Shown here in pieces: positions 1 to 11,908 of a DNA stretch of 64,000 bases. Within the stretch, counting starts at the first letter, position 1; every line of letters begins with the position of its first letter. The stretch comes from Clostridia bacterium (lineage in GTDB: Bacteria; Bacillota; Clostridia; Oscillospirales; CAG-272). A model generated the notes under the pieces. The model saw only the letters and a program-made list of their open reading frames with translations. It did not search any database and was not told the DNA's origin. The stretch lies in contig JAFQDF010000037.1 in assembly GCA_017416185.1 (NCBI GenBank), positions 1 to 64,000 of the forward strand, given 5' to 3'. A program made the position numbers and the translations under genes.

Positions 1-588
1 GTCAGCAGCCTTGGTATAGATACCTCCGCCTACACGGCAGAAGAGCGCTACAGAGCTTGCTCCCAGAGAGAAGCCGGTCAGAAGCTGATTGACTATATCT
101 GCTTCAACGTTAGGATCGATAAGACGCATTATATATGATACGAGAGCCACACCGAAGGCACCTATGGATACAACTAAAATGCCCATTACGGCACCGCCCG
201 AAAAGGCAATTTTAAATGCAGCACCCAAACCTTTTTTTGCAGACTCAGCGGTTCTTACGTTTGATATAACTGCCGTACGCATACCCATATATCCCGCAGC
301 ACAGGAAAGAACTGCACCCAACAGGAAGGCCGCCGCAACGTCAAAGCCCAGACCCGGAGTAAAGCCGAGAATTGCAACCATAAAAACGAGAAATACTGCC
401 AATATCCTGTATTGACGGTACAGATACGCCATAGCACCGCCCTTGATATATGACGATATCTCGTTCATCCTCGGGTCCTCTATCCTGACCTTCTTTATGC
501 CCTTAACCAAAAGCATCGAAAGCACTACTCCCAAGGCACATAGGATAATTACGCTTAAATCTGCATTTAACTTCAAGAAATCAAACAT
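1..588 (-). CDS. hppA: Membrane-bound H+-translocating pyrophosphatase, N-terminal part; the gene continues past the window start
   Basis: Reverse-strand translation from ATG at 586-588, with a GGAGG RBS upstream, gives MFDFLKLNADLSVIILCALGVV...MAYLYRQYRILAVFLV...CRVGGGIYTKAAD. This is multi-TM with the GGG-IYTKAAD motif typical of V-type PPases. The plus-strand ORF 89-415 is antisense noise. Confidence 0.8.
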   Translation of the reverse strand, partial: MFDFLKLNADLSVIILCALGVVLSMLLVKGIKKVRIEDPRMNEISSYIKGGAMAYLYRQYRILAVFLVFMVAILGFTPGLGFDVAAAFLLGAVLSCAAGYMGMRTAVISNVRTAESAKKGLGAAFKIAFSGGAVMGILVVSIGAFGVALVSYIMRLIDPNVEADIVNQLLTGFSLGASSVALFCRVGGGIYTKAAD

Positions 589-3314: not shown

Positions 3315-4208
3315 ATGAACAAAGTTAAGATAATCACCGATTCCTGTTCGGATCTGTCAGAAGAGCTCTTGGCAAAATATGATATCGACTATTGCCGTAT
3401 GGCTACTTTTCTTGACGGAGTTGAGTCCCCTGCTCTGTTGAGCTGGAGTCAGAATGATGCTCACGAGCTGTACGAAACTATCCGATCGGGTAAGCGGGTA
3501 ACGACCTCACAGGTTCCCACCGAGGAATTTAAAAATGTTTTTACCAAGTATCTTGATTCAGGGTATGACGTAGTATATATCGGATGCTCCTCTAAACAGT
3601 CAGGCTCTGTAAACACAGGTAATCTGATCGCACAAAAGCTTATAAAGGAATATCCCGATGCACGTATACATTGCATTGATTCCTTAAACGCATCCCTCGG
3701 TGAGGGTATGCTTGCCATAGAAGCCGCAAGGCTGGCAAAAGAAGGCTTTGATGCCGACGAAATATGCGAGCGTATCACCGCAATATGCAACAACGTCCGT
3801 CAGTACGTAACCGTACATACCCTCGATCATCTCAAAAAGGCAGGCAGGGTATCGGCATCCTCGGCTTTCTTCGGTAATCTTATGGGAGTGAAACCGATAA
3901 TCACCTCTGACAAAAACGGTGTTCAGATACCCGTAAAGAAAGTCAAGGGCAGAAAAAACTCGTTTACCGAAATTGTAAAGCTGCTCAGAGAGGTAATACG
4001 CGAGCCTGAAAAACAAACGGTATACATAGCCCACGCTGACTGTCAAAAGGAAGAGGTCGAATACCTTAAAGAGCTTATTAAAAGTGAGATAAACTGCAAA
4101 GATATATACGTGGGGATCATAGGCCCCATCATAGGTGCATCCATAGGACCTGATGCCGTCGGAATATGGGGCTACGGTGAAGAGATAGATTTTGAGGGTG
4201 AACAATGA
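3315..4208 (+). CDS. DegV family fatty-acid-binding protein (FakB-like)
   Basis: MNKVKIITDSCSDL... has a typical DegV N-terminus. The ATG at 3315 has a GGAAGGGAG RBS at 8-nt spacing. The ORF-track start at 3276 lacks an RBS and would place the hairpin inside the CDS. Confidence 0.85.
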   Translation: MNKVKIITDSCSDLSEELLAKYDIDYCRMATFLDGVESPALLSWSQNDAHELYETIRSGKRVTTSQVPTEEFKNVFTKYLDSGYDVVYIGCSSKQSGSVNTGNLIAQKLIKEYPDARIHCIDSLNASLGEGMLAIEAARLAKEGFDADEICERITAICNNVRQYVTVHTLDHLKKAGRVSASSAFFGNLMGVKPIITSDKNGVQIPVKKVKGRKNSFTEIVKLLREVIREPEKQTVYIAHADCQKEEVEYLKELIKSEINCKDIYVGIIGPIIGASIGPDAVGIWGYGEEIDFEGEQ

Positions 4209-4825
4209 TAAAGGTATTATTATATGTTTCAGCCGCTTTATGCGCGTATCTTGTGTGCGGTATAAACCCTGCTATACTGATCTCAAAAAGAGTTTATCAT
4301 ACCGATATCCGAACCCTCGGCAGCGGCAATGCGGGCTTTACTAACTTCAAGCGCAGCATCGGCGGTATCTATAGTTGGGTGGTGCTGTTGTTCGATCTTT
4401 CAAAGGCGGCAGTTATAACGGCTATATTTGCAAGGCTATTTGAAATACATATCGGCAGCTATGACCTTGGGGCAATATATACCTGCTTCTTTGCAATGCT
4501 GGGACACTGTTTTCCCTGTTGGTACCGCTTCAAAGGAGGCAAAGGCTTTTTGGTATATATATCGGTAATATGGTTCGTTGACCCGCGTGCGGGAGCCGTA
4601 GCTCTTATTATAATGCTGTTACTGCTTATAACTACCCGTTATATGTCCCTGTCAACCGTTACGGCTATGCTCTCCTGCCCTATTACTCTGGCACTTATAA
4701 ACGCCGAAGCTCGGGTCATCGTCATATGTACACTATGCTCTCTTCTTATGACTGTAAGGCATAAGGATAATTTTGTAAGACTTATCAAGGGTACGGAAAA
4801 AAAGGTATCTCTCATTGATAAATAA
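4205..4825 (+). CDS. plsY: Second PlsY-family glycerol-3-phosphate acyltransferase paralog, translationally coupled to degV
   Basis: GSGNAGFTN motif and multi-TM. Its start overlaps the degV stop (ATGA). Confidence 0.75.
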   Translation: MIKVLLYVSAALCAYLVCGINPAILISKRVYHTDIRTLGSGNAGFTNFKRSIGGIYSWVVLLFDLSKAAVITAIFARLFEIHIGSYDLGAIYTCFFAMLGHCFPCWYRFKGGKGFLVYISVIWFVDPRAGAVALIIMLLLLITTRYMSLSTVTAMLSCPITLALINAEARVIVICTLCSLLMTVRHKDNFVRLIKGTEKKVSLIDK

Positions 4826-4830
4826 CTATA

Positions 4831-4858
4831 AAAGGACTTCCTTTTTCGAAGTCCTTTT
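4831..4858. terminator. Bidirectional intrinsic terminator (AAAGGACTTC...GAAGTCCTTTTT) between plsY-2 (+) and niaR (-)
   Basis: 10-bp stem with T-runs on both sides. Confidence 0.7.
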
Positions 4859-5370
4859 TATATTTCAGGTGCTATATATCCCTTTTCGGTAAGGGCGTTT
4901 TCAATATTATCAAGCGTTTGCCTGCTGTCTGCGGAAACTGTATGGTAGTGATATCCTCCGGTTATATTCATAAGCTCGGTGGATTTTCCGCTTCGTACAC
5001 CCTCCATAAAATTCTCTATGTCTTCTCTTGAGGCAATACTCAGAGGTGCTTCTATACGCCCATATACCTTATGCCATACGTAGACGTTCTCTACCCTGCC
5101 GCCGAAGGATACGATAACGGAAAGCTCATCCTCGGTCTGCTCCTTGGTATGGCGGAGCTTAAAGGTCTTTTTAACAAGCTCACTCACAGGCAAAAGATAT
5201 CCGCTATGGGTGGATCGTATATCATACCCCTCTGCCTTGAGAGCGGAAATATCGCTGACTACGATCTGACGCGAAACACCGAATTTATCGGCTAAAGCCG
5301 TGCCGTTAACAGCAGCTTCGCTTCCTCTCAAAGTGTCGATTATCGCTTTTCTTCTCTCGTCTGCTTTCAT
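4858..5370 (-). CDS. niaR: NiaR/YrxA-like transcriptional regulator (HTH_11 plus 3H domain)
   Basis: 170 aa with an N-terminal HTH (GTALADKFGVSRQIVVSDISAL) and a C-terminal His-rich 3H-like region (GGYHYHTV). Confidence 0.65.
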   Translation of the reverse strand: MKADERRKAIIDTLRGSEAAVNGTALADKFGVSRQIVVSDISALKAEGYDIRSTHSGYLLPVSELVKKTFKLRHTKEQTEDELSVIVSFGGRVENVYVWHKVYGRIEAPLSIASREDIENFMEGVRSGKSTELMNITGGYHYHTVSADSRQTLDNIENALTEKGYIAPEI

Positions 5371-5431
5371 TTCATCACCCCTTGTAATACTTTACCATAT
5401 TACAACGATAAAGTCAAGTGAATATAGGATA

Positions 5432-5460
5432 TTGCAAAATTTTGTCATATATTGTATAAT
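5432..5460 (+). promoter_or_regulatory. Sigma-A promoter (TTGCAA, 17-nt spacer, TATAAT) upstream of the WYL gene pair
   Basis: Hexamers read from the sequence, 60 nt upstream of the start codon. Confidence 0.45.
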
Positions 5461-5519
5461 AAGTACGGTTTTTGGGACAGTTGATTTTTATAATTAAATA
5501 TAACGAAAGGAGAATGGCT

Positions 5520-6770
5520 ATGGCATACAGCGAGCTTATAAAGAATTTTGAGAATATCCGTGATTATATGCGTGAGTTTTACGTTTACGGCTTCAAGAGC
5601 AGAAACGACTATACCGAAAAGAGCTCACGCTCATACGACGATGAGCGTCGGCGTATGGAAAGCTGGCTTGGGGAGCATATGAGCTTCGTACGTACTCCCG
5701 AGGGTAAAAACGTCTTTATATCTATTGACAGCCGTGTCACGGGACACAATCCGCTCTACAAGGCACTCAAGGCTAAAAGCTTTACCGACAAGGATATCAC
5801 CCTGCATTTTATACTTTTTGACCTACTTCATTCTCCCGAGATATCTCTTTCCCTTTCAGAAATAGTTAAGAATATAGACCGCCGTCTGTCCGAATTTGAC
5901 GAGCCTATGATATTTGACGAATCCACCGTCAGAAAAAAGCTGAAGGAATATACAGAGCAAGGACTGATAGTCACAGAAAAGGACGGCAGAAAAATACTAT
6001 ACAGACGCTCCCCTTCCGTTATGCCTATGGGAATAAGCGATGCTCTGCATTTCTTTTCCGAGGCTGCTCCCGTAGGTACAGTCGGCTCATTTCTGCTCGA
6101 CAAGCAGGGAGAGCATAGGGACAATTTCGGTTTTAAGCATCATTATATCACAAGCGCCCTTGACAGTGACGTTACCGCCAAGCTCTTTATGGCAATGCAC
6201 AAAAAGGCTATCGTATCCGTCTCAAATCATTCACGGTTTGCCCCTACCCCCACGATAAAAAGAATAATTCCCCTTCGTATTTTTATGAGTGTTCAGAACG
6301 GCAGACATCATCTGCTGGCATACGAGGCGGAGTATAATTCTATCAAGGCATTCCGTATTGATTATCTGTCTGACATAAAGATAGAGGAAACTACTCCCCG
6401 CTTTGACGAGCTGAGGGCAGCACTTGATACTATACAGACAAAAATGTGGGGAGTTACGGTAAGAAAGGGACTCTCTGTAGATCAAAATACGGAAAGAGTA
6501 GAGTTTACGGTACGCGTAGAGGATGACGAGGAGCATATAATAAGAAGGCTGCTTCGTGAAAAGCGTATAGGCCGTATAGAAAGACTTGATAAAAATAACT
6601 ACCGCTTTACTGCCGATGTTTACGACATAAGCGAAATGATCCCTTGGATACGTACCTTTATCTGCCGTATAACGAGTCTTGATTTTTCAAACAAGGTCCT
6701 TGAAAAGCAATTTCGGTCAGACATAAAAGAAATGTACCGTATCTACGGTATAGAGGAGGCGGAAATATGA
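5520..6770 (+). CDS. WYL-domain protein 1 (putative wHTH, WYL and C-terminal extension domains)
   Basis: The WYL-like core HHLLAYEAEYNSIKAFRIDYLSDIKIEE, a preceding winged-helix-like segment (DESTVRKKLKEYTEQGLIVTEKDGRKILYRR), and an unknown N-terminal ~120 aa. The ATG at 5520 has an AAAGGAG RBS at 7-nt spacing; the ORF-track start at 5472 is TTG. Confidence 0.6.
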   Translation: MAYSELIKNFENIRDYMREFYVYGFKSRNDYTEKSSRSYDDERRRMESWLGEHMSFVRTPEGKNVFISIDSRVTGHNPLYKALKAKSFTDKDITLHFILFDLLHSPEISLSLSEIVKNIDRRLSEFDEPMIFDESTVRKKLKEYTEQGLIVTEKDGRKILYRRSPSVMPMGISDALHFFSEAAPVGTVGSFLLDKQGEHRDNFGFKHHYITSALDSDVTAKLFMAMHKKAIVSVSNHSRFAPTPTIKRIIPLRIFMSVQNGRHHLLAYEAEYNSIKAFRIDYLSDIKIEETTPRFDELRAALDTIQTKMWGVTVRKGLSVDQNTERVEFTVRVEDDEEHIIRRLLREKRIGRIERLDKNNYRFTADVYDISEMIPWIRTFICRITSLDFSNKVLEKQFRSDIKEMYRIYGIEEAEI

Positions 6771-7678
6771 TATTCAATGAAATATATTCTGCATACTTTA
6801 ATGCCGTAGCCGATATTTTAGCAAAACTTACCGAAGGTGATACCGAGGGCTGTGACCTGTCTGCCATAGTATCAGAACACGCCTTCGGAGAAAGCGCTCT
6901 AACCATCCTCCCCGCCCTTAAAAGCGGTAAATGGCAGTTGGTTCATCCCGATATGACCACCCATATTGCACACAGACCTTCAATGCCCCTGACCGATATA
7001 CAGAAAAGATGGCTTAAAGCCATATCCCTTGACCCGAGAATAGCTCTGTTTGATATATACTTTGAGGGCCTTGAGGACACCGAACCGCTGTTCACCGCCG
7101 AGGATTACGTAATATACGATAAATATTCGGACGGAGACCCCTTTACCGATGAAAGGTATATTTCTCATTTTCGTACTATATTGACAGCCCTGAATCAGGG
7201 ACATAATCTGAAGCTGGAAATATTAAACCGGCGTGGTGAGAGGGTCTATATAAGATGTATCCCCGAAAGGCTGGAATATTCAGAAAAGGACGATAAATTC
7301 CGTCTTGTTACAAGCGGATGCGGCTTTGTCCGTGCCGTCAACCTTGCCCGTATACAGAAATGCAAAATATATTACGGTGACGATATCATACGCTCAAAGG
7401 GGGATGAAAGAAAATGCGACACCCTGCGTCTGAAGATAACGGACGAGCGCAACACTCTTGAAAGATGCCTTATGCATTTTGCACATCTTGAAAAGAACGT
7501 TGAGAGGATAAGCGAAAAGGAGTACATACTCAATATGAGCTACGACATGGCCGATACCCCCGAGATGGTAATACGTGTGCTTTCCTTCGGCCCAACCGTT
7601 GAGGTGATATCACCCGAAAGCTTTAAGGAATTAATAAAAAATAAGTTAAAAGATCAAAAAAGATGCGGATTTTTTTAA
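6767..7678 (+). CDS. WYL-domain protein 2, translationally coupled (ATGA overlap) to WYL protein 1
   Basis: WYL-like segment ERVYIRCIPERLEYSEKDDKFRLVTSGCGFVRAVNLARIQKCKIYY. It is 303 aa with no obvious HTH. Confidence 0.55.
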   Translation: MIFNEIYSAYFNAVADILAKLTEGDTEGCDLSAIVSEHAFGESALTILPALKSGKWQLVHPDMTTHIAHRPSMPLTDIQKRWLKAISLDPRIALFDIYFEGLEDTEPLFTAEDYVIYDKYSDGDPFTDERYISHFRTILTALNQGHNLKLEILNRRGERVYIRCIPERLEYSEKDDKFRLVTSGCGFVRAVNLARIQKCKIYYGDDIIRSKGDERKCDTLRLKITDERNTLERCLMHFAHLEKNVERISEKEYILNMSYDMADTPEMVIRVLSFGPTVEVISPESFKELIKNKLKDQKRCGFF

Positions 7679-7695
7679 GTTCGCATCTTTTTTTC
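7661..7695 (+). terminator. Intrinsic terminator (AGATGCG...CGCATCT plus a T7 run) overlapping the stop codon of WYL protein 2
   Basis: 7-bp stem with a large loop containing the TAA stop, followed by TTTTTTT. Confidence 0.5.
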
Positions 7696-7787
7696 CGTGA
7701 AAAAAACGGTATAACTTAGTAAAATATACTTGCAAGCCGATAAAGTCAGGTATATGAAATTACTACGGTACATAAGGCTATGCCGAA

Positions 7788-7895
7788 ATGTATGCCGTAT
7801 GCTTGCGGCAAATTTGATTGAGTCTTGAAAACTCATAGCAAATTTTAAGGACCTTTCAGGTCCATCTATCGCAGGTTCGAATCCTGCCGTATGTT
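7788..7895 (+). ncRNA. tRNA-like element. It has a canonical T-arm (GCAGG-TTCGAAT-CCTGC), an upstream stem-loop (GGACC-TTTCA-GGTCC), an anticodon-like hairpin (TGAGT-CTTGAAA-ACTCA) and a weak 7-bp acceptor-like pairing (ATGTATG/CGTATGT). This is a non-canonical cloverleaf, possibly a Y-RNA-like or tRNA-mimic RNA, or a tRNA remnant.
   Basis: Folded by hand. The GGTTCGAATCC T-loop lies on the + strand in a 470-nt gap free of plausible CDS between the WYL genes and the SPFH/rtcB pair. There are three G-U pairs in the acceptor, no D-arm and a 13-nt insertion, so it is not a standard tRNA. Confidence 0.3.
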
Positions 7896-8149
7896 GTGAA
7901 ACATATCGCCGGTGGATTGGTATTTTGATGTCGTGCAAAAAAGCACTCTACCCTGATGCAATTACTCTGCCGAAATAAGGTTTACCTTGTCTAAGCAATA
8001 TGTAAATGGCCTTGTCCGAAAACGGATACCGTTGTTCAAATATAAAAGCCAAAATTATTTCCGTTTTTATATGCGTCTGCTTAAGTTTTTGGCCGTCATA
8101 AGCATATGAGTAATTGCAAACGTATATTAACCGTAAAGGAGTATATATA

Positions 8150-9253
8150 ATGATAAAAAAAGTGATAATTAATGAAAATCAAAGAGGGTTTCTCTTCAAG
8201 AACGGAAAATACGTAAAGATGCTTTGTCCCGGTAAGTATTATACAAACGGTACAAAGGAAATAGAAATATCAAATTTAGATATGCCCGTAGATCCTCACA
8301 GATGCTCTGTCGATACACTATTAACCGACAAAGCAGTCGCAGATTCCGTATGCTTAGTAGATGTCGGAGATGAGCAGGTTGCGCTCCATTTCGTCAACGG
8401 AAAATTCAAATCCGCACTTACTCACGGAAAGTATATGTTCTGGTCCGTACAGGATAAACACGAATATAAGATGATAGATATATCTATCACAGAAGCCGAC
8501 GAAAGCGTTCCCGAATACATTTTTTCTATGATCCCCTCAACACTCTATGTAAAAATAGAGGTAGAGGAGTATCATAAAGCATTGCTTTACTTCAATCAAA
8601 GATTTGTAAAGGTTTTAGATGCAGGTACATACTTTTACTGGAGAAATTCTGTCAAAATAAGCGTAAAACACATCGACACCAGACTTACTCAAATGGATAT
8701 TACGGGACAGGAAATACTTACGCAGGACAAAGTTTCACTTCGTATCAATATGATCTGTAACTACCGAGTAACCGATTACGTAAAAATATTTACCGAAATT
8801 GACGATTTTACCGAGCAACTGCATATAATGGCTCAGCTCGCGTTACGTGAATACGTAGGCAAGCACAAGCTGGACGATATCCTTGAAAAGAAAGACGAAA
8901 TGTCCGAATTTGTTTTTAATAAATTAAAAGCAAAGGAAAGTGAATTGTTCGTTAATATTGCAAATGCCGACGTTAAGGATATAATTCTTCCCGGCGAGAT
9001 CAGAGCGATAATGAATACTGTGCTTATCGCAGAAAAACGCGCTCAGGCAAATGTTATAACCCGCCGCGAGGAAGTAGCATCCACAAGATCCCTTTTGAAT
9101 ACGGCTAAGCTTATGGATGAAAACAGTACCTTATATAAGCTTAAAGAGCTTGAATACGTAGAACGCATCTGTGAAAACATCGGTAATATCAATCTCAACG
9201 GTAACACCGACGTACTGTCCCAGCTTACAGGTATCCTGAGAGGCGGTGCTTAA
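8150..9253 (+). CDS. SPFH/band-7 (stomatin/prohibitin/flotillin/HflKC) domain protein with a duplicated N-terminal SPFH-start motif
   Basis: Core match to SPFH: VNIANADVKDIILPGEIRAIMNTVLIAEKRAQANVITRREEVASTRSLLNTAKLMDEN. Two SPFH-start-like segments are present (VIINENQRGFLFKNGKYVKMLCPGKYY and VEEYHKALLYFNQRFVKVLDAGTYFYW). The ATG at 8150 has an AAGGAG RBS. Confidence 0.7.
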   Translation: MIKKVIINENQRGFLFKNGKYVKMLCPGKYYTNGTKEIEISNLDMPVDPHRCSVDTLLTDKAVADSVCLVDVGDEQVALHFVNGKFKSALTHGKYMFWSVQDKHEYKMIDISITEADESVPEYIFSMIPSTLYVKIEVEEYHKALLYFNQRFVKVLDAGTYFYWRNSVKISVKHIDTRLTQMDITGQEILTQDKVSLRINMICNYRVTDYVKIFTEIDDFTEQLHIMAQLALREYVGKHKLDDILEKKDEMSEFVFNKLKAKESELFVNIANADVKDIILPGEIRAIMNTVLIAEKRAQANVITRREEVASTRSLLNTAKLMDENSTLYKLKELEYVERICENIGNINLNGNTDVLSQLTGILRGGA

Positions 9254-9260
9254 CAATAAA

Positions 9261-10466
9261 ATGATAGAGATAAAAGGAAATTTTAATACCGCCCTCTGCT
9301 TTACAGACAGTGTGGAGGGCTTGGCATACGAGCAGATCAAAACGGTCTGCGATATAGAGGCGTTTGCCGATAATAAGATAAGAATAATGCCCGACGTTCA
9401 CGCAGGTGTGGGCTGTACCATAGGTACGACGATGACTCTTACCGACAAGGTAGTTCCCAATATGGTAGGCGTGGATATCGGCTGCGGTATGTATACCGTA
9501 GAGCTCGGAAAGATCGATATTGACCTTGAAGCATTTGATACCGCCGTTCATACTATTCCCTGCGGCAAGGCTGTATGGGAGGGCAGAAAGGAGCGCTTTG
9601 ACCTTGAGGAGCTGCGCTGCTTCCGTGCGCTTAAGGATTCAAAAAGACTGGAAAGAAGTATCGGAACCCTTGGAGGCGGAAACCACTTTATAGAGATAGA
9701 TAAGGACGAAGATGGCAACAAGTACCTCGTTATCCATTCCGGAAGCCGTAACCTCGGCACTCAGGTGGCGGAGTACTATCAGTCTATTGCCGTTGATCTT
9801 AATATGGGCAAGGAGGAGTACTTTGACCGCCGTGAGGAGATAATCCGCACCTACAAAGCTGAGGGCAGACGCTCTGAAATTCAGGATGTCTTGAAGGCTA
9901 TGGCAAAGGAGTGGAAGGATAAGGAGCCTACACTTCCCCGCGGACTCTGCTATCTCTACGGCAGATTTATGGAGGATTATATCCACGATATAGACATCTG
10001 TCAGCGCTTTGCTACCCGCAACCGTGAGAAGATGGCAGAGATAATTCTTGAGCTGACTGGAATAGCGGCGGCACATTCCTTCCATACGATACACAATTAT
10101 ATCGACGTTGAGGCTATGATACTCCGTAAGGGCTCTGTGTCTGCAAAGGCAGGCGAGAAGCTCCTTATCCCCATCAATATGCGTGACGGCAGCCTTATCT
10201 GTATCGGCAAGGGAAACTCTGACTGGAATTTTTCCGCACCCCACGGTGCAGGCAGACTTATGAGCCGTACCGATGCCTTTGAGAAGCTGACTATGGCAGA
10301 GTATGAGGCGCAGATGTCAGGTATCTACTCCACCTGTATCAACACCTTTACTCTTGACGAGTCACCTATGGCATACAAGTCTATGGAGCATATAGTATCC
10401 AACATCACTCCCACCGCCGATATAGTTACACATATAAAGCCTATATACAATTTCAAGGCAAATTAA
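9261..10466 (+). CDS. rtcB: RtcB-family RNA 3'-phosphate/5'-OH ligase (short ~400-aa form)
   Basis: Motifs MPDVHAGVGCTIG, GGGNHFIEI and NFSAPHGAGR (the GMP-histidine motif). An alternative GTG start at 9246 would overlap the SPFH gene by 8 nt. Confidence 0.8.
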   Translation: MIEIKGNFNTALCFTDSVEGLAYEQIKTVCDIEAFADNKIRIMPDVHAGVGCTIGTTMTLTDKVVPNMVGVDIGCGMYTVELGKIDIDLEAFDTAVHTIPCGKAVWEGRKERFDLEELRCFRALKDSKRLERSIGTLGGGNHFIEIDKDEDGNKYLVIHSGSRNLGTQVAEYYQSIAVDLNMGKEEYFDRREEIIRTYKAEGRRSEIQDVLKAMAKEWKDKEPTLPRGLCYLYGRFMEDYIHDIDICQRFATRNREKMAEIILELTGIAAAHSFHTIHNYIDVEAMILRKGSVSAKAGEKLLIPINMRDGSLICIGKGNSDWNFSAPHGAGRLMSRTDAFEKLTMAEYEAQMSGIYSTCINTFTLDESPMAYKSMEHIVSNITPTADIVTHIKPIYNFKAN

Positions 10467-10488
10467 GGGGCAAGTTGCCCCACCCATA

Positions 10489-10524
10489 CTGCGCCCATTT
10501 GTGCAGTAATACAAATCACACGCC
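10489..10524. repeat. Copy A of a ~36-bp intergenic hairpin motif (CTGCGCC-ATTTGT-GCAGTAAT-ACAAAT-CACACGCC)
   Basis: It shares the TTTG-loop(CAGT)-CAAATCACACG core with copies at 27440-27475 and 53983-54020. Confidence 0.5.
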
Positions 10525-10545
10525 ACAAGGCAATTATCTATATAT

Positions 10546-10585
10546 AAAAAGCTTCGGATCAAACCGAAGCTTCTTTTGTTTTTTT
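10546..10585 (+). terminator. Intrinsic terminator for rtcB (AAGCTTCGG...CCGAAGCTT plus CTTTTGTTTTTTT). The stem overlaps the 3' end of the convergent MATE gene.
   Basis: 9-bp stem with a long T-run. Confidence 0.7.
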
Positions 10586-11908
10586 CATTACCGTAATATA
10601 CATTATAAATCCCATTACAAGGGTCAGGGTGTCGGCTATGGGCTGGGCGCTCATAAGCCCCGTCTCGCCGCCAAAATTCTTAAGTATTATAAGTAAGGGT
10701 ATAAGCAGAACAAGCTGTCTTACCATAGAGAGCAGAAGTGACTGGAACCATCTGCCCATAGACTGGAATATTGCGCCGAAGAGGTTAGTGAAGCACATAC
10801 CCGGCACGCATAAGAACCATATACGTATAAAGTCTATTCCCTTCTCAACAGTCTGTGTCTCGGAGGTAAATATGTGAAGTATAGGCTCGGCAAATATCTC
10901 TGCCAACGCTATACAGAGTCCTGCGTAGATGGCAAGTATTATAAAGGAAAGACTGCTTACAGACTTGAATCTCTTAAGGTTTCCCGCACCGTAGCAGTAA
11001 CCTAACAGAGGCATTATACCCTGTGTGAGACCAACGGTTATCTGTATTCCCACAGAGCCTATCTTCTGTACCGTTCCCTGTGCGGCGATAGATATATCAC
11101 CGTAGGATGACATACTGTTAGTAAGAAGGATGTTGGCTACAGTACCCAGGATTATAACAGCAGCGGCGGGAATTCCTACAAGGATGACCGAGCTTGCAAT
11201 ATTCTTATCAAATCTGAATTTCAGAGGATTAAGAACTATTACGCTGTCCTTTGTTCTGAGGGCTACCGTAAGAAGATAACCGAAGGATATAAGGTTGGAT
11301 ATAAAGGTAGCTATTCCCGCGCCGCCTATTCCCATACCTAACACGGAAACGAAGAGTCCGTCAAGAACTATATTCAACACTCCGCCGAGCGCAACGCCTA
11401 TACTTGCCTGCTTGGTATTTCCTTCAGAACGGATAAGATGCGCCAGCACCATAGAGCCTACCGTGGGTATTCCGCCTATCGTAAAGGTCCAGAAAAGATA
11501 GCTTTGGGTGTGTGCAAGAGTAGACTCGGTAACTGCTCCTGCCATACGGAAAATGGGTAGGTTAAATACGTTTAATATAAGTATCAAAAGCCCCACGGCA
11601 ATAAAGGAACCGTAAAAGCCGAAGGTAGAGGCAAGACGGGCATTGTCCGGCTTCTTTTCACCCAGAGAACGGGAAATAAAGCTGTTGGCGCCGATACCGA
11701 AAAGGTTTGCCACCATAGTAAGGCACATAAATATGGGGAAGCTTACCGTCAAGGCTGCAATCTGTGAGGGATCGTTGGTATGTCCCACAAAGAAGGCATC
11801 GGCAAGGTTATATATAAGTACCACAAGCTGACTCAGAACCGTGGGTATGGCTAACTTTGCCACTGCCCTCGGTACCGTCATATTTTCAAAAACGTCTTTA
11901 TTGTTCAT
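10559..11908 (-). CDS. MATE-family efflux transporter
   Basis: 449 aa with 12 predicted TM helices and the MATE N-terminus (VPRAVAKLAIPTVLSQLVVLIYNLADAFFVGH). Confidence 0.85.
   Translation of the reverse strand: MNNKDVFENMTVPRAVAKLAIPTVLSQLVVLIYNLADAFFVGHTNDPSQIAALTVSFPIFMCLTMVANLFGIGANSFISRSLGEKKPDNARLASTFGFYGSFIAVGLLILILNVFNLPIFRMAGAVTESTLAHTQSYLFWTFTIGGIPTVGSMVLAHLIRSEGNTKQASIGVALGGVLNIVLDGLFVSVLGMGIGGAGIATFISNLISFGYLLTVALRTKDSVIVLNPLKFRFDKNIASSVILVGIPAAAVIILGTVANILLTNSMSSYGDISIAAQGTVQKIGSVGIQITVGLTQGIMPLLGYCYGAGNLKRFKSVSSLSFIILAIYAGLCIALAEIFAEPILHIFTSETQTVEKGIDFIRIWFLCVPGMCFTNLFGAIFQSMGRWFQSLLLSMVRQLVLLIPLLIILKNFGGETGLMSAQPIADTLTLVMGFIMYITVMKKTKEASV

Follow-up and report, generated by a model that had tools for sequence, protein, structure and literature searches.

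A putative two-subunit WYL transcription factor encoded beside an RtcB RNA-repair operon in Clostridia

The WYL-domain transcription factors PafBC and DriD bind single-stranded DNA (ssDNA) through their WYL domains, upon which transcription is activated; both sit at the −35, with a constant spacing to the −10 element (PMC11804915, PMC13004042). PafB and PafC each have an N-terminal helix–turn–helix (HTH) (PMC11804915), that of PafB reading the promoter motif and that of PafC contacting sigma (PMC11804915, PMC13004042). The regulator RtcR activates rtcBA on binding 5′ tRNA halves with 2′,3′-cyclic phosphate ends (PMC7790460). The Aravind group proposed that WYL and CARF factors sense cyclic-ended RNAs and regulate RNA-repair pathways (PMC9503650, which for WYL factors regulating such pathways refers to a 2016 paper), and Burroughs and Aravind (2016), as summarised in bioRxiv 10.1101/312249, predicted a Band-7/b7a-tRNA/RtcB system. 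Here we describe two adjacent genes at positions 5520–7678 (+) of a 64,000-nt stretch of contig JAFQDF010000037.1 from a Clostridia bacterium (the whole stretch is called the window below). Their products, P1 (first open reading frame, ORF1) and P2 (second, ORF2), probably make up a heterodimeric WYL transcription factor controlling the adjacent operon for a tRNA-like RNA, a Band-7 protein and the RNA ligase RtcB (features are listed in Table 1).

The pair was compared with 56 related loci from species-representative genomes, with P1 identity ranging from 42 to 92%. Their hosts are nearly all Clostridia metagenome-assembled genomes; the exceptions were binned as Sodaliphilus (locus L031) and Flexilinea (L049). 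Domain scans covered 29 diverse orthologs of P1 and 29 of P2. Loci with at least 3 kb of DNA beyond the pair, 39 in number, were taken as informative for downstream genes. A separate set of 120 metagenome contigs was picked solely by the sequence of a promoter box described below; 104 of these had enough upstream DNA (at least 1.5 kb) and 16 had too little. At 90% identity the family comprises ∼6,900 P1 and ∼6,400 P2 sequence clusters, and its members abound in Clostridia of the gut and rumen.

The original prediction for this locus had described two adjacent WYL-domain proteins of unequal architecture, the first with an extra N-terminal region and a winged HTH (wHTH) before the WYL core, the second (303 aa) with a WYL-like core and no evident HTH. 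These features were all borne out. In P1 (416 aa) the PADLOC ‘WYL’ model, which spans both WYL and WCX, matches aa 211–405 (E 4e-11). Pfam WYL matches aa 219–287 (E 6e-4, slightly under the curated cutoff), and Pfam WCX weakly matches aa 325–380 (E 8e-3); among P1 orthologs these two domains were found in 25 (best E 2e-9) and 6 of 29, respectively. The wHTH has weak matches at aa 124–165 to the PaaX, Penicillinase_R and ArsR (ArsR/SmtB) families. The AlphaFold2 (AF2) model of P1, with a predicted local distance difference test score (pLDDT) of 64, is confident over the wHTH, WYL and WCX. Its best Foldseek match is DriD (8tp8; E 2.5e-8; ∼366 aligned columns, wHTH through WCX), and the alignments to full-length DriD and PafB span the wHTH. 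P1 has all three domains, wHTH, WYL and WCX, that characterize the HTH-WYL-WCX superfamily. Its recognition helix, S135–Y144, is nearly invariant; R279 is invariant and aligns with R201 of PafC, one of two arginines required there for ligand binding (PMC11804915).

The N-terminal extension of P1 is the best-conserved part of either protein: it averages 77% identity to the window sequence, and conservation reaches 95% or more in 38 of its 89 columns, where Arg, Lys, Tyr and Phe are frequent. When 1.8 billion representative proteins were scanned, the extension turned up exclusively at the N-termini of P1-family members (677 clusters). Searches of Pfam, NCBIfam and PADLOC gave zero matches both for the extension (aa 1–89) and for the N-terminal domain of P2 (aa 1–126); in profile comparisons the two matched neither each other nor the wHTH of P1 (E 0.017–0.26; 0.2–0.3 for the P2 domain against the wHTH and the extension).

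In P2 the same PADLOC model matches aa 125–295 (E 2e-9). Pfam WCX matches aa 257–295 with 23.8 bits, the cutoff being 23.9, and was found in 27 of the 29 orthologs (best E 5e-9). The AF2 model of P2 (pLDDT 69.5) is confident in WYL and WCX. No HTH family was detected among the 29 P2 orthologs at E ≤ 0.01; P2 has the WYL and WCX of the superfamily and lacks a detectable N-terminal HTH.

Foldseek searches against the PDB with the two AF2 models led to one group of structures. The top 32 matches of each (E ≤ 2.7e-4) are all DriD, PafBC, CapW, BrxR or Cas13d-associated WYL1, with E values running from 2e-8 to ∼3e-4; below 1e-3 there is just one further match, an unrelated chain for the P2 model (5.3e-4). 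Since the Pfam, PADLOC and ortholog matches agree with Foldseek, the WYL similarity of P1 and P2 is not due to chance, and the two proteins do not fall into unrelated families. Sequence searches of the PDB with single sequences or narrow profiles produced nothing significant; only diverse profiles reached PafC (E 0.17), PafB (E 1) and BrxR, and these marginally.

A relationship between P1 and P2 themselves was seen with hhalign, which aligned P1 aa 167–281 with P2 aa 97–197 (linker and WYL) at E 1.1e-4 (1e-3 in another run) when diverse profiles were used; profiles of close relatives gave a non-significant E of 0.15. The match of the diverse profiles shows that P1 and P2 are old, remote paralogs that have diverged. 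In the 56-locus set, P2 follows P1 in every locus where the contig continues. The stop–start overlap reported in the original prediction is the ATGA at 6767–6770; an overlap of some kind is kept in 44 of 47 loci and is of the 4-nt type in 28 of the 47. Moreover, four mutually distant database proteins of 756–855 aa (P0298, P0335, P0364 and P0369) are natural P1–linker–P2 fusions. In P0298, aa 1–425 resemble P1 (43% identity, E 1e-108) and aa 449–760 resemble P2 (34%, E 9e-53); in P0369, aa 457–784 resemble P2 (36% identity, E 1e-57). The linkers between the P1 and P2 parts are long and of low complexity; therefore the fusions are not simple frameshift artefacts of the 4-nt overlap. The paralogy, the kept overlap and the natural fusions together strongly suggest that P1 and P2 form a physical heterodimer in the style of PafBC, for which the same kind of evidence exists in the naturally fused PafBC of Arthrobacter (PDB 6sj9).

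In the window P2 is followed by a 450-nt non-coding region, the Band-7 gene and the RtcB gene. The presence of an RNA ligase next to such a pair had been thought unusual; it turned out to be the rule for the family, 32 of the 39 informative loci having a co-directional RtcB gene downstream, either directly after the pair, behind Band-7 or behind a ∼500-aa DUF2828 + DUF7788 protein. Three of the seven loci without RtcB still have Band-7 or DUF2828. Adjacency to RtcB is the defining conserved context of the pair family. RtcB with an adjacent SPFH/Band-7 gene, the arrangement that marks the Band-7/tRNA-like RNA/RtcB repair system, is present in the window and kept in related loci. The neighbours of the pair in the window are a NiaR-like regulator, a probable PlsY, Band-7, RtcB and a MATE transporter; genes for a proteasome or for DNA repair are absent from its surroundings, and PADLOC recognised no defence genes among the neighbours.

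Two variants of the downstream genes were observed. At 9881–10756 of one related locus (L021) a HIRAN-domain protein (PF08797, E 3e-9) is encoded after Band-7, in the usual slot of RtcB. In the sister loci L008, L011, L045, L046, L047 and L050 the ∼500-aa DUF2828 + DUF7788 protein replaces Band-7. The DUF2828 protein may be Ro-like; no sequence link of the DUF2828 + DUF7788 protein to Ro60/TROVE was found.

Between the pair and the repair genes lies a near-invariant ∼22-bp box, AGTTCGCAnCTTTTTTTCCGTGA, which overlaps the −35 of the repair-operon promoter and stands at a constant distance from its −10. The sequence AGTTCGCAnCTTTTTTTCCgTGA is common to 41 distinct related sequences (in an ungapped logo), and the core of the box is exact in 38 of the 56 genome loci. 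A TAnAAT −10 hexamer occurs 19–20 nt past the box; it falls in one column of the ungapped, box-anchored alignment, and the spacing between box and −10 is therefore fixed. In many orthologs the repair promoter also has an extended TG. The box is unique in the 64-kb window even when up to three mismatches are allowed (0 copies expected). It has no dyad symmetry, and this asymmetry fits a regulator with a single HTH. A search upstream of P1 for palindromic operators, proposed in the original prediction, turned up none conserved with the pair, and the sequence upstream of P1 has no conservation across the related loci; conservation is instead found beyond P2, at the repair-operon promoter, in an asymmetric cis-element.

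Among the 104 box-selected contigs with enough upstream DNA, 98 have P1–P2 beside the box. The pair is in tandem in 82 of them (directly upstream in 79, farther upstream in 3) and divergent in 16, where the box lies in the shared intergenic region without the hairpin described below. The six contigs without an adjacent pair include one with a divergent pair ∼2.1 kb away (L077) and one with P1 downstream of the DUF2828 gene (L071). RtcB, DUF2828 or Band-7 was found no more than 4.5 kb downstream of the box in all but 4 of the contigs that were long enough. Thus, the box travels with the regulator pair irrespective of gene order or downstream cargo and, since it accompanies the pair in both tandem and divergent orders, it is a DNA-level element of the repair-operon promoter.

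One could also suppose that the target of the pair is a different one, such as a defence island or DNA repair, that its place beside RtcB is without regulatory significance, and that the box is only a terminator combined with a housekeeping promoter. The PADLOC matches of the proteins are indeed to CRISPR-associated WYL models, and four pairs have no repair genes nearby. However, the linkage to the repair genes persists over the whole range of P1 identity and in two gene orders, the box stays invariant even where the hairpin is absent, and the window holds neither another copy of the box nor, among the neighbours, a recognised defence gene. We consider such a different target very improbable.

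Some boxes occur in other settings. Locus L032 has a second, slightly degenerate box with its own −10 (GTTTGCAGTCTTTTTTCCGTGA ... TATAAT) ∼100–140 nt upstream of P1 (about 5860–5905), a possible sign that, in some species, the pair regulates itself or a further transcript is under its control. Five box-selected contigs (L059, L067, L103, L122 and L123) have the exact 22-nt box with P1–P2 or a repair gene unrecognised in the fetched DNA, and in L067 no −10 is seen at the usual spacing from the box. These boxes could represent more members of the regulon, different gene orders or chance occurrences.

An inverted repeat at the P2 stop was considered as an operator for a dimer and rejected. In tandem loci its 5′ half, situated in the last codons of P2, pairs with GTTCGCAnC of the box; the arms are 4 to 17 nt apart, depending on the locus, and in divergent loci the left arm is missing. 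With variable spacing and a missing arm, the element behaves as an RNA hairpin and not as a dimer-binding palindrome. P2 codons 296–303, including the invariant Cys300, form the 5′ arm, and the invariant box forms the 3′ arm. As the end of P2 doubles as a hairpin arm, its C-terminal residues may be constrained more as nucleic acid than as protein.

A mechanism compatible with these observations can be outlined. The WCX domains would dimerise P1 with P2, and the single wHTH of P1, possibly together with the conserved N-terminal extension, would read the asymmetric box. The WYL domains may recognise RNA damage through a nucleic-acid ligand, for example single-stranded RNA (ssRNA), tRNA halves or 2′,3′-cyclic-phosphate ends, and binding of this ligand would switch transcription of the repair operon. 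The pair would then be a functional Firmicute counterpart of the CARF/sigma-54 activator RtcR. We lean towards activation rather than repression of the repair operon, since PafBC and DriD, the best structural matches, also bind at −35 at a fixed distance from −10.

Repression by the same heterodimer at the same box, with the −35 occluded until the ligand releases the protein as in BrxR or CapW, appears unlikely, although it is a serious competitor. The box overlaps the −35-like hexamer of a seemingly competent promoter (GTGAAA, 17 nt, TAAAAT), BrxR and CapW are structural matches of both P1 and P2, and WYL factors of conflict systems have been described as negative regulators (PMC9503650). Still, DriD and PafBC, which match best in structure, are activators, the box extends ∼20 bp beyond the −35 on its upstream side and leaves the −10 and the start site free in all cases, and the WYL repressors known so far are homodimers acting on palindromes or pseudopalindromes, whereas the box has no dyad symmetry.

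A different role for the second protein, with P1 an ordinary homodimeric factor and P2 an RNA-binding accessory of a particle made of RtcB, Band-7 and the tRNA-like RNA (compare WYL1 with Cas13d), would agree with a DNA-binding domain being undetected in P2 across the 29 orthologs, and with WYL1 (6oaw) being among the structural matches of P2. The Sm-like fold of WYL domains and the binding of ssRNA by WYL1 speak for the same role. On the other hand, it is P1 and not RtcB that P2 always accompanies; the translation of P2 is coupled to that of P1, a terminator and a promoter stand between P2 and the repair genes, and the divergent loci keep it in the P1 operon. The four independent fusions of P1 with P2 also argue against an accessory role, as does the asymmetric box, which suits one HTH better than two. 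Such a role for P2 is, in our opinion, improbable.

Several observations weigh against the heterodimeric activator that we favour. In P1, Tyr takes the place of the second ligand-binding Arg of PafB and PafC. The WYL of P2 is highly divergent, Pfam WYL being found in 5 of the 29 P2 orthologs. AF2 confidence is low for aa 1–89 of P1 and for most of aa 1–75 of P2, and the roles assigned to both N-terminal domains are therefore guesses. The T7 tract in the box doubles as the terminator tail in tandem loci; hence part of the conservation of the box may have another cause. With its fair −35-like hexamer, GTGAAA (4/6), and good −10, the repair promoter might fire without an activator, which favours a repressor. 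Finally, loci L027, L030, L040 and L049 have the pair without a nearby repair gene.

The predicted product of the repair promoter begins with a structured RNA of ∼400 nt. In Band-7-type loci, including the window, this RNA contains a T-arm, GGTTCGAnTCC, with compensatory changes in its stem. RNAalifold predicted 50 pairs in the RNA, 39 of them with compensatory changes; a long-range helix joins about 7957–7967 with 8108–8118, and the folding z-score is −4.0. Between P2 and Band-7 no RNA gene was reported by ARAGORN or by Rfam at its gathering thresholds; the Rfam scores for tRNA (18.5 bits, threshold 29) and YrlA (14.6 bits) were both sub-threshold. The ∼400-nt RNA is probably the predicted ‘b7a-tRNA’, though it is much larger than a tRNA. 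DUF2828-type loci have tRNA-like genes between P2 and the first gene (Rfam tRNA 48–63 bits, in agreement with ARAGORN), namely at 8636–8798 in L008, 9439–9511 in L011, 8756–8825 in L045, 5099–5171 in L046, 2960–3131 in L047 and 8323–8393 in L050. One or two such genes, with the scores of genuine tRNAs, stand there under the same promoter box, with the anticodons given by ARAGORN as Phe, Met, Ser and Leu.

Table 1. Features of the P1–P2 locus and of the adjacent RNA-repair operon (nucleotide positions are those of the window)
Feature	Residues (aa)	Position (nt)	Strand	Basis or remarks
Candidate promoter of the P1–P2 operon, sigma-70 type (TTGCAA, 17 nt, TATAAT)		5432..5460	+	Consensus scan, 10/12 matches
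P1, 416 aa (ATG 5520, TGA 6768–6770)	1–416	5520..6770	+	GGAG at 5509–5512, 7 nt before the start
P1 N-terminal extension	1–89	5520–5786	+	Alignment of the family
P1 wHTH	90–166	5787–6017	+	AF2 model (aa 90–165), Foldseek, weak hidden Markov model matches
P1 linker, possibly akin to the DriD three-helix bundle	167–216		+	Covered by the Foldseek alignment to DriD (8tp8)
P1 WYL	217–292	6168–6395	+	Pfam, PADLOC, Foldseek
P1 WCX	324–416	6489–6767	+	Weak Pfam match, structural alignments
P2, 303 aa (ATG 6767, TAA 7676–7678)	1–303	6767..7678	+	Own GGAGG 7 nt upstream
P2 conserved N-terminal domain, no family match	1–126	6767–7144	+	Alignment
P2 divergent WYL	127–203	7145–7375	+	PADLOC, Foldseek
P2 WCX	216–303	7412–7675	+	Pfam, structure
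Terminator-like hairpin (GATGCGGA, loop, TTCGCATC), then T7		7662..7694	+	5′ arm in the last P2 codons
Box AGTTCGCATCTTTTTTTCCGTGA, candidate P1–P2 binding site (about −54 to −32)		7678..7700	+	Directly after the P2 stop
Repair-operon promoter (−35-like GTGAAA 7697–7702, 17 nt, −10 TAAAAT 7720–7725)		7697..7725	+	Consensus scan, alignment
Structured leader or non-coding RNA, ∼400 nt, with tRNA-like arm		7732..8140	+	Flanked by the box promoter and the Band-7 ribosome-binding site
Anticodon-like arm		7815–7833	+	Within the structured RNA
T-arm GCAGGTTCGAATCCTGC		7871–7887	+	Conserved, compensatory stem changes
SPFH/Band-7 protein, 367 aa	1–367	8150..9253	+	PF01145, E 1.8e-29; kept downstream of the pair in many loci
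RtcB RNA ligase (ORF from GTG 9246, likely start ATG 9261)		9246..10466	+	PF01139, E 2.6e-55

On the other side of the pair, the NiaR-like regulator (HTH_11, E 6e-13; 3H, E 1e-34) is encoded divergently at 4858–5370 (−). A perfect inverted repeat, TTGTAATA-N8-TATTACAA, is located at 5382–5405, just upstream of this gene, and was examined as an operator of the pair. This candidate was rejected: the repeat travels with the NiaR-like gene, is kept only in the closest relatives (L001, L002 and L017) and does not occur with other pairs. Most likely it serves as operator for the NiaR-like regulator and is unconnected with the WYL pair. Two further ORFs, at 710–1345 (−) and 4205–4825 (+), are paralogs of each other (30% identity over 198 aa) which, judged from their translations alone, may be PlsY acyltransferases; the translations of the ORFs that they flank resemble a response regulator with a histidine kinase and a DegV-like protein.

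To our knowledge, RNA-damage sensing is understood mechanistically for one regulator only, RtcR of Proteobacteria. If the proposed mechanism is right, the pair offers a second, unrelated sensor of RNA damage, with a precise 22-bp DNA target and a defined output operon. PafBC would no longer be the sole heterodimeric WYL regulator, and the pair would provide a natural test of asymmetry (one HTH, two different WYL domains) in ligand-gated transcription. An inducible switch would also give a practical entry to the study of the 400-nt tRNA-like RNA and of the Band-7 protein. What makes the locus more interesting than first thought is a conserved module of regulator, box and RNA-repair genes in place of an odd gene placement; it is less interesting in that the module is widespread and its theme was partly foreseen in the literature. 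The general link between WYL factors and RNA repair was already noted computationally in 2016, as far as the later papers that refer to this work report it. The paired architecture, the fusions, the box and experiments on the system are undescribed in the full texts searched, a collection outside which Burroughs and Aravind (2016) falls.

A broader and rather doubtful conjecture is that the pair represents a second class of heterodimeric WYL regulator, spread across the Clostridia and the first to be tied to RNA damage. In this class a family-specific domain would have taken the place of the HTH in one subunit, and the other would have acquired a highly conserved N-terminal domain; the protein would read an asymmetric −35 box, use its WYL domains to sense broken RNA (as tRNA halves, as cyclic-phosphate ends or by way of the tRNA-like RNA of the operon itself and its state) and switch on an RtcB repair particle. 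If true, it would be the RNA-damage analogue of PafBC-type activation and an answer to the problem solved by RtcR that uses neither sigma-54 nor CARF.

Of the known systems, PafBC, which activates the DNA-damage response of Actinobacteria, is the one to which the original prediction had likened the pair. The likeness is in the two adjacent paralogous WYL-WCX genes with naturally fused forms, in the predicted fold shared with P1 and P2 (Foldseek E 2e-8 to 1e-6), in an asymmetric cis-element at −35 at a fixed distance from −10, and in the one ligand-binding Arg kept in P1. However, an HTH is present in both PafB and PafC and absent from P2, P1 has the additional 89-aa N-terminal domain, and sequence similarity is marginal (E 0.17–1). 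PafBC belongs to Actinobacteria and to a setting of Pup-proteasome and DNA-repair genes, whereas P1–P2 belongs to Clostridia and is found with RtcB, Band-7 and a tRNA-like RNA. The pair is not orthologous to PafBC; of the suggested resemblance, the two-subunit arrangement remains plausible in view of paralogy, adjacency and fusions, while the identity with PafB and PafC has to be given up.

DriD, an activator of Caulobacter, is the best structural match of P1, and its binding site overlaps the −35 as well (PMC13004042). Unlike the pair, it is a homodimer that binds a pseudo-palindrome and has ssDNA as ligand; here the box has no dyad and the partner P2 has no HTH. BrxR and CapW share the HTH-WYL-WCX fold and the position of a regulator beside the system that it controls; they differ in being single-gene homodimeric repressors with palindromic operators, and in serving defence (BREX and CBASS) rather than RNA repair.

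On the side of RNA repair, the Band-7/b7a-tRNA/RtcB system predicted in 2016, in the form in which it has been summarised, resembles the window, where RtcB stands beside Band-7 and a putative tRNA-like non-coding RNA. RtcR (CARF, AAA+ and HTH; sigma-54) differs from the pair both in protein family and in promoter type: neither CARF nor AAA+ was found in P1 or P2 with Pfam or NCBIfam, and the PADLOC CARF/Csa3 matches are weak and confined to the HTH segment. Nevertheless, RtcR is encoded beside an RtcB operon (rtcBA, rsr-yrlBA-rtcBA) that also encodes tRNA-like or Y RNAs, and it senses damaged tRNA (PMC7790460). By this analogy, RtcR is the likely functional analogue of the P1–P2 pair.

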